A DNA stretch of 64,000 nt, taken from Eledone cirrhosa. Taxonomy: Eukaryota. The stretch is taken from the NCBI GenBank assembly GCA_964016885.1, contig CAXHJY010000671.1:1-64000 (forward strand), given 5' to 3'. The notes beneath the pieces are model-generated. The model was given only the letters and a program-made list of their open reading frames with translations, was not told the DNA's origin and made no database searches. Position numbers and translations under genes: made by a program. This document shows positions 47,008 to 63,598 of this stretch, in pieces. How positions within the stretch are numbered: the first letter of the stretch is position 1; each line of letters begins with the position of its first letter.

Positions 47008-47100
47008 ATATTGTTATATTTGGGGAGGGTCATATTGTTATAATATTGCCAGAAATATTAACACACTCATTGTTTGGTTGGTTTTCGCGAAAACCACCAG
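47008..47100 (+). mobile_element. family E diverged fragment
   Basis: atattgttatatttggggagggtcat..ttgcca..ttggttggtt matches the family E arm. Confidence 0.5.
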
Positions 47101-47197
47101 AAGGCTGAGCTCAAGCCGTTTCGACGGCTATTTTCTGAGTCCAGAAATAGCCGTCTAAACGGCTTGAGCTCTACCGTCGGGGTCATACTTTTTCCTA
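47101..47197 (-). mobile_element. family A hairpin, copy 4 (tail lost)
   Basis: ggctgagctcaagccgtttcgacggctattt..ccagaaatagccgtctaaacggcttgagctctaccgtcggggtcatac. Confidence 0.75.
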
Positions 47198-47500
47198 TAT
47201 ATACATATATAATAGAAAAAAAATAGAAAATACTAGAATGTACACCCCAGTACCAACATCAATAAACCTGAAAGACCCACACCACACCCTTCGTGGGAAG
47301 AATGTGGGTTTCAGATTAATCCAGGTGTAACCATTTGTAATTATTTCGCAGTTGACTTAATGGTGTGAGAGTGATGTATTACTTACTGACATCCCCACTA
47401 CCACCACCATCACCATAACCACCACCACTACCACCACCACCACCACTTGCCACCGCCACCACCTCTACCTATCTATCTCGTGTTATTATTTTTACACAAG

Positions 47501-47692
47501 GGGCGGTGAATTGGCAATATCGTAGCGGGTCGGACGCCATGCTTTGACGCATAGAGTTACGGCCCTTGCCATTCTGAGTTCAAATCCCGCCGAGGTTAAC
47601 TTTGCCTTTCATCCTTACGGGGTCGATAAAATAAAGTACCAGTAATGCACTGGCAATTGCTGGCCTTGTGCCAAAAGTAGAAACAGTTATTA
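47501..47692 (+). mobile_element. tRNA-derived SINE, full length
   Basis: A-box-like tggcaatatcg, B box gagttcaaatccc, conserved centre and 3' end. Confidence 0.85.
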
Positions 47693-48364
47693 TTTATACA
47701 CACTTTCCTCTACACCCCATACATCTCATTCTACATTTCCTCCTACTTCTCTCTCATCACCACCTGATGTTGTTACCCGGAGATTTACCCATCTGCATTG
47801 TTGAGGCTTCCAAAACGACCAATTTTATTATTCCACAATGCTTCAAGCAAACTTCAACACTCTCATATATATATGTATGTATATATATATATAATAATAA
47901 AATATAGAGAAAAATACTGCAGGTAGCACATGGATAACATGTAATAAAATGAGTCCCTCATCAGTGATTTGCCGACGATCATCGATATTTCATTGCATTA
48001 AAAATCATATACCTCACGTCGGTGCAATAATAACCAAAATAAGTTATTAGGACAATTGAAACGCGTAAAGCGAGTGAGACAGGAGAACAACACAGAGTAT
48101 AGCTAACCGTAGGGGAAAGAAACAAGCTTCAAAATTATTCTGTTTAGCATAAGCTAGGTGAATATATGAGCTTTTAGAAAACAGACCTGACACGAACTCT
48201 GGCCATGTGAGAAGAGAGAAAAATAGCCTTCGTGGTGTACAGGATGAAATGAAGAGAAGAGAAACAGTGAGTGAGTGAAAGTGTGAGGAAGAGTTAACTG
48301 ACATGACAGAGGGGGAGAAACAGAGAGACTGGGGGAGCAGTAAGAGAGAGAGAGAAAAAAACAC

Positions 48365-49097: not shown

Positions 49098-49136
<39 letters not shown>

Positions 49137-49140
49137 GATG

Positions 49141-49191
49141 AGATTCTACAGGACTAGAACTGTTTCATTCTTTAGAAATCATCAGGAATCT
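49141..49191 (-). ncRNA. type I hammerhead ribozyme, family B
   Basis: agattc-CTGATGA-tttc-taaa-gaat-GAA-ACAG-ttctagtc-CTGT-A-gaatct. Helix I shows a compensatory pair change relative to the 54443 copy (gattc/gaatc vs gcttc/gaagc). Confidence 0.8.
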
Positions 49192-49497
49192 GGGTATCAA
49201 AAAATAAATATGGTATTTATAGGTCTCTACAAGTGGTAGGAGAGGGTGGGGAGTGGGATGGGTGTAGGTCATTGGTTGATAGAAAAGGGAATTCATTAAA
49301 AGCTAATTCTACAAAGCTATAGTTTATTTTTATTAATTTTTGTTTTTAGTAACAATATATATAATGTAATCTGAGTTTTTCGAACATTAATAATAATATT
49401 ATTCGGTTGCTTTGCAATTATGCAAATAAGCCTCATTTTTAAAGCCATGTCAGTAGAATGAGCCCCTCATTCTTGCTCTTGCGTTGGCATGTAAACA

Positions 49498-49547
49498 GAA
49501 CTGCAGACATTGATGTTTCTGGGTATTACCCTTCATCAGTACAGTTC
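49498..49547 (-). ncRNA. type I hammerhead ribozyme
   Basis: gaactgta-CTGATGA-a-gggt-aat-accc-a-GAA-AC-atcaat-GT-C-tgcagttc. 8-bp helix I, GUC site, near-palindromic helix III. Confidence 0.8.
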
Positions 49548-50674: not shown

Positions 50675-51320
50675 AACCGCATCTGTATCAGTGAACTGCT
50701 CAATATTATCAAACTTAGGCGGTGGATTGGCAGCGTCGGTAGAGGGTCGGACGCCATGCTTTCCAGCATAGTTACGTCCCTTTACGATCTGAGTTCAAAT
50801 CCCGCCGAGGTTGACTTTGCCTTTCATCCTTACGGGGTCGATAAAATAAAGTACCAGTGATGCACTGGGTAATTGCTGGCCTTGTGCCTAAAGTAGAAAC
50901 AATTATCAAACTTATACCAATTACATCAATTGTCAACTCAAGAGTACTGAAACTATACGGCCATATAAAAAGATCAACTCGTGGTGTGAGTAGGTTATGC
51001 CTGGAAGGAAGGTTGGCTGGTAAGAGAAGCAGAGGCTGGAAACCAAAACAATGACTTGACAATGTCAACTGAACTTGATCTTTGCTCTTTAAAATCTGCT
51101 GCTGGTGATCGAAAGGTATTATATATTGCTGGAAGAAATGTTGGCCGGTAAGATAAGCAAAGGCCGGCAGCCAAAACGATGGCTTGATAATGTCAATTTA
51201 TGGACTGGACTTGATCTTTGTTCTTTAAACTCTGCTGCTGGTGATCGAACTTTGTGGAGAGAGATATCTCATGTTAATGCGCATTCTGCAACTGGCGGAG
51301 TTTAGCGTCTAAAGAAGAAG
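50675..51320 (+). mobile_element. RTE-type LINE 3' fragment, interrupted by a SINE and with a partial tandem duplication
   Basis: ..LKLYGHIKRS..LEGRLAGKRSRG.. is repeated as LEEMLAGKISKGRQPKRWLDNV..DRTLWREI. Ends aaagaagaag. Confidence 0.75.
50718..50901 (+). mobile_element. tRNA-derived SINE, full length with 13-bp TSD
   Basis: TSD attatcaaactta at 50705-50717 and 50902-50914. A box tggcagcgtcgg, B box gagttcaaatccc. Confidence 0.92.
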
Positions 51321-53498: not shown

Positions 53499-53611
53499 CA
53501 TAGATATGTGTGTGTATATATATATGTATACATTTATATATACACTTATATGTATATATGTATATATGTATAATATATAAGATCAAAAGATGGTTAAAGG
53601 AGTTCCATGTA

Positions 53612-53678
53612 TTTTATTATGCGCATTTCAAAAACAAACATCATCATGCAATAATATTTGTGTTTTCATCAGATAAAA
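53612..53678 (-). ncRNA. hammerhead ribozyme, family D (left arm)
   Basis: Reverse complement of 53798-53864. Confidence 0.78.
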
Positions 53679-53797
53679 CAGGAGAACATGATATGAAGGC
53701 TAAAAAAAACACTTGTGGATAGTGCAGTTTTAAATCAACATATCAAAACTGCACTATCCACAAGTGTTTTTTTTAGCCTTCATATCATGTTCTCCTG

Positions 53798-53864
53798 TTT
53801 TATCTGATGAAAACACAAATATTATTGCATGATGATGTTTGTTTTTGAAATGCGCATAATAAAA
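53798..53864 (+). ncRNA. hammerhead ribozyme, family D (right arm)
   Basis: ttttat-CTGATGA-aaacacaaatat..atgtttgttttt-GAA-ATGCGCAT-A-ataaaa. Confidence 0.78.
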
Positions 53865-54085
53865 TACATGGAACTCCTTTAACCATCTTTTGATCTTATA
53901 TATTATGTATACTCCAGTCCTACAAACTGTAGAGTGCTTCTTATCCGATATCTGCATTGCTTTATTGTACTACAATAAAACTCACCTCCTACATTATGTA
54001 TATATGTATATATATATATTTATATTCAATGATATTAATTGAATATCCCGTTTGCCTATATATATTTATATATGTAATATTTATA

Positions 54086-54114
<29 letters not shown>

Positions 54115-54117
<3 letters not shown>

Positions 54118-54310
54118 GGAAAAGCGTCAGAACCCCGACGGCAGAGCTCAAGCCGTTTCGACAGCTATTTCTGGACTGAAATAGCTGTCGAAACGGCTCG
54201 AGCTCTGCCGTCGGGGTTCTGACTCTTTTCCTATTACCCACTCTACTACCCAAAGTATTGAGTACTCTGATACGTTATGGTCCACCTGGTTCTTTACCAC
54301 ACTTCCTTCG

Positions 54311-54312
<2 letters not shown>
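54115..54312 (+). mobile_element. family A hairpin+tail element, copy 5
   Basis: Arms ataggaaaagcgtcagaacccc... / ...ggggttctgactcttttcctat plus a tail as in 5589-5664. Confidence 0.82.
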
Positions 54313-54382
<70 letters not shown>

Positions 54383-54388
54383 GAAGGA

Positions 54389-54437
54389 GCTTCTACAGGA
54401 CTAGTACTGTTTCATTCAGATGAAATCTTCAGGAAGC
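54389..54437 (-). ncRNA. hammerhead ribozyme, family B (left arm)
   Basis: Reverse complement of 54443-54491. Confidence 0.78.
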
Positions 54438-54442
54438 TCAGT

Positions 54443-54491
54443 GCTTCCTGAAGATTTCATCTGAATGAAACAGTACTAGTCCTGTAGAAGC
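54443..54491 (+). ncRNA. hammerhead ribozyme, family B (right arm)
   Basis: gcttc-CTGAAGA-t-ttc-atct-gaa-t-GAA-ACAG-tACTAGTc-CTGT-A-gaagc. Palindromic loop III, GUA site. Confidence 0.8.
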
Positions 54492-54578
54492 TCCTTCTAT
54501 AAAATAAAAAAATTTTACTCTGCCATGTATTGAGTACCTTACTTACTGTGGTTATCCCCGACTCAACCCGGGACCTAC

Positions 54579-54625
<47 letters not shown>

Positions 54626-54634
<9 letters not shown>

Positions 54635-54941
54635 AGGACAAAAGATGGTTAAAAGAGTTCCATGTATTTTATTATGCGCATTTCAAAAACAAATATCATC
54701 ATGCAATAATATTTGTGTTTTCATCAGATAAAACAGGAAGACATGATATGAAGGTTAAAAAACACTTGTGGATAGTGCAGTTTTAAATCAACATTTTTGA
54801 AATGCGCATAATAAAATACATGGAACTCTTTTAACCATCTTTTGTTCTTATATATTATGTATACTCCAGTCCTACAAACTGTAGAGTGCTTCTTATCCGA
54901 TATCTGCATTGCTTTATTATACTACAATAAAACTCACCTCC

Positions 54942-54946
<5 letters not shown>
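54626..54946 (+). mobile_element. family D element, copy 3 (full left arm, shorter right arm); hammerhead on minus strand at 54667-54733
   Basis: The left arm ends at the same gcagttttaaatcaaca point as copy 2. The right arm starts at tttttgaaatgcgcat. Same tail. Confidence 0.85.
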
Positions 54947-54987
<41 letters not shown>

Positions 54988-55407
54988 GTAAATTGCAAGT
55001 ATTTTCACGAACAATACAAGAGTACTCAATAAATATAGTAGAGTGAAATATCTCTATTTCTTAAAAATTGATGGTCAACTCAATCTACTGAAACTTATAT
55101 TTGCAGACTATTTACAAAGTTTGTGGCTGTCGTACTCATCTAATGGACAGCTATAGAAATCCTTCTTCTATTAAGGCTGCTAATGTGTTGCATGCTTGTG
55201 ATCACTGCAAAATATTTTCCACTCTTGTATGGAAATTTTAAGTTATAGAAGTTTTTTATAATTACAATATATCTTTATACATAAATATCTGCAGAGAGGC
55301 GGAGTGGAGGAATAGGGGCGGGTAGGGGGGGGGATGAAGGGTAGAGGGGAGAGGGGAGAGATTCAGAGAGATAGAGAGAAAGAAAGAACGAATGAAAGCA
55401 AGCAAGC

Positions 55408-62633: not shown

Positions 62634-62857
62634 TGAAGTGAATGTTTTAAATAGCAATGCGTGTCCTAGTTGCTTAATGTCAGGTGAAGACTGCTTGTGA
62701 CATTACCCTGTAAGCGTTGAAGCGTTTCACAAACAAATATATATATACCATGACATAGTTTTAAGGCTGATCCTGTGTTACACAGGGCCTAACAAAACAG
62801 GTCCTTTGAATTACATGTAGAACAGATCTTTTTCTCCGACTGGACAGAGAGGACAGA

Positions 62858-63076
62858 AATAATTGATTCTACTTTAGGCTTAAGGCCAGCAATTTGAGGG
62901 GAGGGGAGGGGAAAATCTATTAAATCGATCCCAGTACATTACTGGCGCTTTATTTTATCGACCCCGTAAGGATGAAAGGCAAAGCTAACCTCGGCAGGAT
63001 TTGAACTCAGAACGTAAAGGGCCGTAATTTTATGCTGTGAAGAATGTTGTCCGACGCTCTACCGATTCTGCCAATC
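62858..63076 (-). mobile_element. tRNA-derived SINE, full length (long-3' variant)
   Basis: Reverse complement of the SINE consensus, including the gatttaat..ccctcccc segment also seen at 20625. Confidence 0.85.
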
Positions 63077-63598
63077 GGACGTATTTCCCCATCGTTCCTA
63101 AAGGCAGGAGAGCTGATACTGGGAAATAAAGTGTTTAGTTCAAGGATCCCAAGCACCACTAGAAATCGAACTTCGTTCTTACAATATGGAGCTAAACATC
63201 CTAAGCACTAACCCACATGTACAGACGCACCAACACTCCTGGAGCAACGAGGAAATAAAGAAGATTTGTTTACAAGCTAATATCGCATCCATTAATACAA
63301 TAGGAAATGTATTCCTATATATTTTTTCAAGGAAATAAATAAAAATATTTCTCGCCTATCCCACATATCTTCCGGAAATTTCCTTTTTAAAAAACTAAAG
63401 ACGTCTTTGTGACGTTCTTTCAAGGAAAACATTCAATAACAACATAGAAACCAAACATACCACAGGAAATCACCATCTTCAGTCAATAATGTAAAATTCA
63501 GAGTTAATATATAGTACACACACACCACAAAACGCAGAAACACGCATGAACACACACACACACACATACACACACACATAAATATCATGTGAAATCAA

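Follow-up and report, generated by a model that had tools for sequence, protein, structure and literature searches.

A cluster of hairpin-and-tail elements with predicted hammerhead ribozymes, strung along TA repeats, raises two questions: what the elements derive from, and how they came to be inserted. The cluster occupies positions 53,571-54,946 of a 64,000-nt stretch of the Eledone cirrhosa genome (contig CAXHJY010000671.1, positions 1-64,000), hereafter called the window, and consists of four elements, D1, A, B and D2, from families D, A and B. An initial annotation of the window regarded these as Penelope-like pLTR pieces with hammerheads, and proposed that they belong to three unrelated, ORF-less families that may form a non-autonomous, retrozyme-like RNA system. 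The former view is borne out, and ORF-linked pLTRs were found for D, A and B. The claim of ORF-less, non-autonomous families is not: all three connect to frames encoding a reverse transcriptase (RT) and an endonuclease. We give a probability of roughly 0.7 to the reading that three protein-coding Penelope-like elements (PLEs) of the Hydra type gave rise to all four elements as short pLTR copies, which entered a TA tract successively and were each likely made by two reverse transcriptions, primed from either side of a single cut and running toward the 5' end of a capped mRNA.

The genome searched comprises 3.0 Gb in 1,796 contigs. The sample consists of query-centred loci and 39 fixed 10-kb stretches; individual loci are cited by L numbers.

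Structure of the cluster

The features of the cluster are listed in Table 1. All four elements lie where they were originally placed, as inspection of the sequence confirms; in D1, the inverted arms computed at 53565-53731 and 53745-53911 are 167 nt long and 99% complementary. The left arms of D1, A and B reach +1. The untemplated base of D1 is a C at 53744 on the plus strand, that is, a G in the sense of the element, and the parent base before +1 is C. In B, an extra G is found on both arms, and the +1 bases of the two arms are unlike.

Table 1. Features of the cluster in window coordinates; +1 is the 5' start of the parent family
Feature	Position	Strand	Description
D1 inverted arm	53571..53744	-	family D pLTR, arm-end site to +1, one untemplated base added
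D1 hammerhead, inverted arm	53610..53680	-	complete (predicted fold)
D1 direct arm and tail	53745..53995	+	parent +13 to ~+260; 98% to L132
D1 hammerhead, direct arm	53796..53866	+	complete (predicted fold); predicted cut after 53858
Linker D1/A	53996..54114	.	52% TA repeat, ~45 nt other sequence; target tract
A inverted arm	54115..54177	-	arm-end site to +1
A direct arm and tail	54178..54312	+	from +7; 87% to intact subfamily
Linker A/B	54313..54375	.	TA repeat and T run
B inverted arm	54376..54439	-	reaches +1 (A), with untemplated G
B hammerhead, inverted arm	~54387..54439	-	complete (predicted fold); CTGAAGA at 54432
B direct arm and tail	54441..54580	+	first bases G, T (parent C, A), then parent +2; 99% to L325
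B hammerhead, direct arm	54443..54491	+	complete (predicted fold); CTGAAGA at 54448; predicted cut after 54486
Linker B/D2	54581..54625	.	TA repeat
D2 inverted arm	54626..54794	-	parent +175 to +3
D2 hammerhead, inverted arm	54665..54735	-	complete (predicted fold)
D2 direct arm and tail	54794..54946	+	parent +108 to +258; 105 nt shorter than D2 inverted arm
Linker D2/fragment	54947..54984	.	TA repeat
Degenerate tail-like fragment	54985..55060	-	TATTGAGTAC motif as in A and B tails

The elements had been described as separated almost wholly by (TA)n. TA repeats do make up 52%, 60%, 98% and 100% of the four linkers in order, the exceptions being the other sequence in the first linker and the T run in the second. 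The tail-like fragment, originally drawn on the opposite strand at 54985-55260, is recognisable on the minus strand at 54985-55060, and the sampled loci give no support for a reach to 55260. This fragment has four weak homologs (82-90% identity); no parent was found for it among the sampled loci, and no hammerhead core by descriptor scan.

The motif GTATTGAGTAC, or a close form of it, is common to the tails of A and B and to the fragment (window 54250-54265, 54525-54540 and 55017-55032), and D has TAGAGTGC. The end of Hydra-2_Amil carries GTATTGAGCAC (Craig et al. 2021 supplement, PMC8557442). This tail motif, in the forms GTATTGAGTAC, GTATTGAGCAC and TAGAGTGC, is a candidate protein-binding signal.

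Elsewhere in the window, more D and A stubs occur in both orientations (21780-21977, 5450-5665, 14625-14805, 35545-35749 and 47092-47214), and a longer copy of a B relative on the minus strand at 49133-49250 has kept an upstream TATA-like box at -30. A further family of dispersed repeats, about 190-210 nt long and found at 20625-20835, 41829-42520, 47502-47698, 50718-50906 and 62857-63080, is presumably SINE-like.

Coding parents and their clade

Families D, A and B are the terminal repeats (pLTRs) of elements encoding an RT and an endonuclease in the Eledone cirrhosa genome, with parent proteins of 800 aa for D, 716 aa for A and 754 codons for B. In the loci that match D best, 11 of 37 arms continue upstream, first through a 3' UTR of about 0.9-1.2 kb, then into the RT and endonuclease frame; the D endonuclease is followed by the pLTR in 29 of 30 loci. 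The arrangement pLTR-ORF-pLTR is present in five of eight wider stretches (L132, L134, L135, L137 and L138), with an open frame of 821 codons (800 aa from Met). For A, the first link came from one locus in which the A tail runs into a Hydra N-terminus; a search with that N-terminus placed A directly upstream of it in 20 of 30 loci, and A bounds intact frames of 784 codons in tandem units of 3,531 bp. Head-to-tail arrays of at least four near-identical intact A elements, with a period of about 3.53 kb, were observed at L277-L278 and L280. For B, 19 of the 30 loci found by pattern search extend into a common upstream sequence, and in six loci B lies downstream of the C-terminal part of the 754-codon frame on the same strand. 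A different Hydra-type endonuclease lies upstream of B at L294/L330.

Identity between the short copies and the ORF-linked pLTRs is 98-100% in both B and D. The three families are young and present in high copy number, with all 150 scored matches to the D endonuclease at 98-100% identity and many frames intact. At least four Hydra families in this genome retain intact frames.

Contrary to the initial view that the three families are unrelated, their proteins are 36-50% identical to one another. All carry R..RW, SDKT, YRDD, CxCX5C, CxxC..E and N..CxH and are without CX2-5CxxC, and the published definition of the Hydra clade comprises RWK-like and DKT motifs, the CxCX5C linker, CxxC/CxH flanking E and N, and no CX2-5CxxC (PMC8557442). 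Based on motifs and pLTR traits, we assign the D, A and B parents to Hydra-type PLEs, as new families. Of the traits by which PLEs are recognised, partial pLTR-ORF-pLTR tandems, the inverted 5' copy and the optional tail are present; the upstream pLTR was not seen for B, no copy among the loci examined joining an upstream pLTR or tail to the ORF start.

The predicted structure of the A protein, the one family modelled (pLDDT 93), has a telomerase RT as its best Foldseek match (E 2.7e-8). The endonuclease alone, as a low-confidence model, matches GIY-YIG nucleases best, weakly (E 0.18), and its VIY..YIG..R..H aligns with a Pfam-positive GIY-YIG at a probability of 13%. A Pfam search detected no domain in the three Hydra proteins and a PDB sequence search no match; there are 2,216 homologs at about 40% identity, nearly all without a name.

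Two other candidate parents were rejected. A junction of A with a Neptune-like GIY-YIG element (L036/L092) is a chance one: in 30 of 30 loci, the Neptune-like family comes with a pLTR of its own. This abundant family (L140-L169; 89-97% identity, Pfam GIY-YIG) has a minimal hammerhead core, TA flanks and two 3' ends, but its 5' starts are scattered. The other candidate, considered for A and for B, is a fourth Hydra-type family with many 781-codon frames (L217-L246, e.g., L218 and L221); in the downstream sequences listed, its 3' end is distinct from both A and B. That end has two end sites and TA flanks, and no canonical hammerhead was picked out in this family.

Hammerhead folds

Descriptor scans of both strands find five complete type-I hammerhead folds in the cluster, in agreement with the earlier count: two in D1, one in D2, two in B and none in A. 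Rfam at the gathering threshold has no match anywhere in the window. The folds are therefore predicted from descriptor scans and from their likeness to published Hydra hammerheads. In B, stem I is GCTTC/GAAGC and stem III ACAG/CTGT, with the predicted cut after GUA. Among 15 B-like hammerheads, one clear compensatory pair is found in stem I, and stems II and III are invariant; this helix covariation lends modest backing to a ribozyme fold with predicted cleavage.

The right arm of D2 is missing the 5' core and the 5' strand of stem I, so that its hammerhead is incomplete. The window A element likewise lacks these parts and retains only the 3' half of the hammerhead of its parent. In the full A parent the hammerhead is complete; its core is of the U3-A8 kind (TTGA.AA/CTGA.AA), located further upstream than the A stub, and its stem II is long. 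A U3-A8 variant has been described for Schistosoma PLEs (PMC4209133). A canonical CTGANGA immediately ahead of A was rejected as the parent core, there being only eight such cases genome-wide, all at junctions.

Further hammerhead-like folds of other families lie beside TA repeats or element ends in the window, at 6506-6568 (-), 10290-10366 (+), 23055-23114 (-) and 49498-49547 (-). Many more families with such folds, several with a U3-A8 core, occur in the sampled loci.

Target sites, orientation and copy number

The proposal that such elements land repeatedly in (TA)n is well supported. TA no more than 26 nt from the tail end is present in 109 of 139 copies of A, 110 of 116 of B and 92 of 99 of D (79-95%), against a background of 9%. 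By contrast, the same polarity of the four elements does not reflect a rule: among 52 pairs of neighbours from different families at most 600 nt apart, 24 have the same and 28 the opposite orientation (p=0.68), the three pairs of the window included, and without these the numbers are 21 and 28. The polarity of the window cluster is thus due to chance. Of the two properties whose randomness genome-wide would, according to the initial annotation, count against its reading, flanks are non-random in the sampled copies, being enriched in TA, and orientation has no bias among the sampled pairs.

Tails in the 39 fixed stretches (390 kb) number 7 for A, 6 for B-like elements and 4 for D; rough extrapolation gives tens of thousands of short copies of each. 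One of the 39 (L203) contains a four-element A/B cluster of mixed orientation.

Ends of the copies

Each of the three families has two 3' end sites, which we call the arm-end and tail-end sites. Most short hairpins combine an end of each type: 60 of 66 pairs do so in D and 89 of 93 in B. In A hairpins, a tail is paired with a shorter end in 58 of 66.

At the other side, 114 of 166 arms, taken from loci not picked for the family concerned, start within -5 to +15 of +1, and 14 extend beyond -20. A G precedes +1 in 34 of 41 arms that start there and is found in 14 of 85 at other starts with a parent base other than G; before +1, the parent base is T in A and C in D and B. By family, the proportions are 16/20 for A, 6/8 for D and 12/13 for B, against 12/55, 2/24 and 0/6 at other starts (Fisher p = 7e-6, 8e-4 and 3e-4, respectively). 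Exact G-start matches number 2,111 for D and 375 for B genome-wide, versus 0 for reversed-pattern controls, and the 60 matches inspected (30+30) are all junctions, none running into parent upstream sequence. Note that G accounts for about half, not all, of the junction bases: at D junctions genome-wide there are 2,111 G and 2,151 A/T, and B arms with a changed +1 (C or T; n=236) have G in 133 and another base in 103. Part of the extra-G cases can come from microhomology with the opposite arm.

A TATA-like box is located at -29 to -31 in A, the A2 subfamily, B and the B2 relative, and has been retained while the spacer diverged; D has no such box at -30. In B arms genome-wide, +1 is often T, C or G and not the parent A, while -1 is G. 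As a speculation, this variable base could come from misreading of a modified cap-adjacent nucleotide. In the literature searched, mostly open-access papers, we found no report of a cap signature or a fixed 5' end in PLE copies.

Proposed insertion mechanism

What the copies display directly is the identity of the families, the TA flanks, the two 3' end sites per family, the fixed 5' start with the extra G, and the pairing of arm-end with tail-end. With some confidence, although less than in the overall reading, we propose that the thousands of short hairpin-and-tail copies record the PLE insertion reaction. Two RTs, one to either side of a double-strand cut, would each begin at its own fixed position within a capped sense mRNA and copy past the cap, with an extra G and errors at +1 as the outcome, and the ends of their products would then be joined.

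In this scheme, the GIY-YIG-like domain would cut both strands of (TA)n, and the tail-end site would serve for priming by one of the resulting 3' ends, the arm-end site for priming by the other. With the upstream pLTR in use, both priming sites would be only 60-260 nt from the mRNA start, which would yield short cDNAs; priming in the downstream pLTR would instead yield long 5'-truncated and full-length copies. Each cDNA would reach the cap or stop short of it, and the two ends would then be joined head to head, either bluntly, with 1-3 added bases, or by microhomology. The hammerheads would be carried along and would not set the template end. Since TA remains to the left and right of every insertion, clusters would build up.

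Several of these steps have published counterparts. The PLE protein PAc cuts and extends both strands in vitro, with two internal starts of reverse transcription that flank the tail, and can do so without cleavage by the ribozyme (PMC11167929). PLE promoters sit in the pLTR (PMC2377424, PMC3846280), and an extra G is the mark of cap copying at full-length L1 junctions (PMC11702581). The capped start at +1 in D, A and B is itself deduced from the DNA sequence only.

An alternative with the same parents would have the hairpin made by fold-back or self-priming of a single cDNA, or on an antisense template, and would regard the 5' wall as a structural stop or as a nuclease-trimmed end to which C is added by terminal transferase. 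Head-to-head palindromes of rotifer PLEs have been interpreted as self-priming on antisense RNA (PMC3846280), and the two arms start at most 10 nt apart in 157 of 209 hairpins here. However, either arm can far exceed the other: the arm side reaches at least 10 nt further 5' in 39 of the 209 and the tail side in 13. In some joints, including that of window B, the +1 base also differs between the arms. Because lengths are unequal in either direction and +1 bases differ, neither arm is simply a copy of the other. A structural stop would suit B, in which +1 coincides with the foot of hammerhead stem I, and would suit D for its want of a TATA-like box, but +1 lies inside stem II in A and about 60 nt before stem I in D, and the extra G goes with +1, not with truncation points elsewhere. 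We consider this alternative unlikely.

A further possibility is that the short elements are self-propagating non-autonomous units, retrozyme-like or SINE-like, with their own transcription, hammerhead cutting and mobilisation in trans. Retrozymes have been proposed to derive from pLTRs (bioRxiv 10.64898/2026.07.22.740005), the hammerheads of D and B are predicted to be complete, the short copies number in the tens of thousands by the above extrapolation, and three short direct duplications of B are known (L074, L368 and L433). In L368 and L433, a new copy that begins at +1 follows on from a truncated tail, and these two may show the template jump behind partial tandems. Such propagation is very improbable, and largely refuted, on several grounds. 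The upstream TATA region is absent from the short copies, and the short A copies have no complete ribozyme. The joints vary among copies; because they differ from copy to copy, the hairpin is taken to be remade each time. Only one of the 166 arms starts within 3 nt of the hammerhead cut site. Core sites with a same-strand partner at most 700 nt away number 0 of 97 in D, 6 of 192 in B and 4 of 151 in A, and no cleavage-to-cleavage, that is, tandem, hammerhead array is present among the core sites sampled. Finally, the near-identity of short B and D copies to ORF-linked pLTRs speaks against separate families, and the retrozyme-like system of the initial annotation is not upheld.

Inverted arms and TA flanks would also fit MITEs or DNA-transposon TIRs with a TA target, a contrary case that the initial annotation itself had named, but the tail is asymmetric, the joint is variable, the families map instead to RT-encoding parents in direct continuity with their frames, and symmetric TIRs without a link to RT were not encountered, which leaves this reading practically no chance.

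Significance

The array in the window thus consists of four ordinary by-products of three new Hydra-type families, and the cluster itself is ordinary. Less ordinary is the single fixed 5' start of each family with its untemplated G, which suggests twin-primed cDNAs extending to the 5' end of a capped mRNA. The origin of the tandem and inverted structures of PLEs was named as an open question by Craig et al. 2021 (PMC8557442). Young, high-copy families such as these offer a statistical record of the insertion reaction as well as ready substrates for work in vitro, and make this question testable. In repeat annotation, stubs of this type are at risk of being misread as MITEs, SINEs or retrozymes.

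If the proposed mechanism is true, one mechanism would account for both the head-to-head pLTR palindromes and the tail, and the promoters of three families would have been mapped from DNA alone. In addition, since the start of family A lies inside the hammerhead, only the downstream pLTR could hold its whole ribozyme.

Comparison with known systems

TA targeting, hammerheads, inverted copies and tails are already published traits of Hydra elements and PLEs. Craig et al. 2021 (PMC8557442) describe (TA)n targets and hammerheads in nearly all Hydra families, including Hydra-1_Obim of Octopus bimaculoides. Like D, A and B, members of the clade have a single ORF with RWK-like, DKT, YxDD and CxCX5C motifs, CxxC/CxH around E and N and no CCHH, a hammerhead in the pLTR, (TA)n targets, and an inverted 5' copy with a tail. 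Stem III of B (gaa-acag...ctgt-a) is that of Hydra-1_aMil, Penelope-1_NV and Penelope-1_SK in the same source. There are also differences from that account: the A unit is 3.5 kb long, whereas Hydra elements are generally <3 kb; the tails here are about 70-85 nt, whereas 30-40 bp is given for PLEs; the D, A and B hammerheads, compared by eye, are unlike that of Hydra-1_Obim; and A, with its U3-A8 core and long stem II, differs from the Hydra clade as listed. The repeat annotation of Octopus vulgaris (PMC13282606) reports recently active Penelope families and, in the portion available to us, gives no detail of a fixed start or an extra G.

PAc, a Poseidon element of Anolis (Frangieh et al. 2024, PMC11167929), resembles the proposal made here in its two internal reverse transcription starts bounding the tail and in the extension of both target strands; its AT-rich target and a ribozyme that is dispensable in vitro are in line with it as well. 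PAc belongs to another clade, and parts 1-2 of that paper neither mention a fixed capped 5' end nor offer an explanation of head-to-head short copies.

Non-LTR retrozymes (bioRxiv 10.64898/2026.07.22.740005) share with the present elements pLTR-derived type-I hammerheads in short non-coding units. As described there, however, retrozymes are direct tandem repeats with a hammerhead per unit, whereas the copies here pair head to head, have their hammerheads on opposite strands, and end at points unrelated to the cut site.

In L1 twin priming (PMC11702581), as in our proposal, a second reverse transcription from the reciprocal DNA end results in an inversion, and an extra G occurs at full-length 5' junctions. 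The two L1 cDNAs cover adjacent, non-overlapping parts of the RNA, whereas here the two would overlap on one and the same part, and either is able to extend to the 5' end, which would produce a palindrome.
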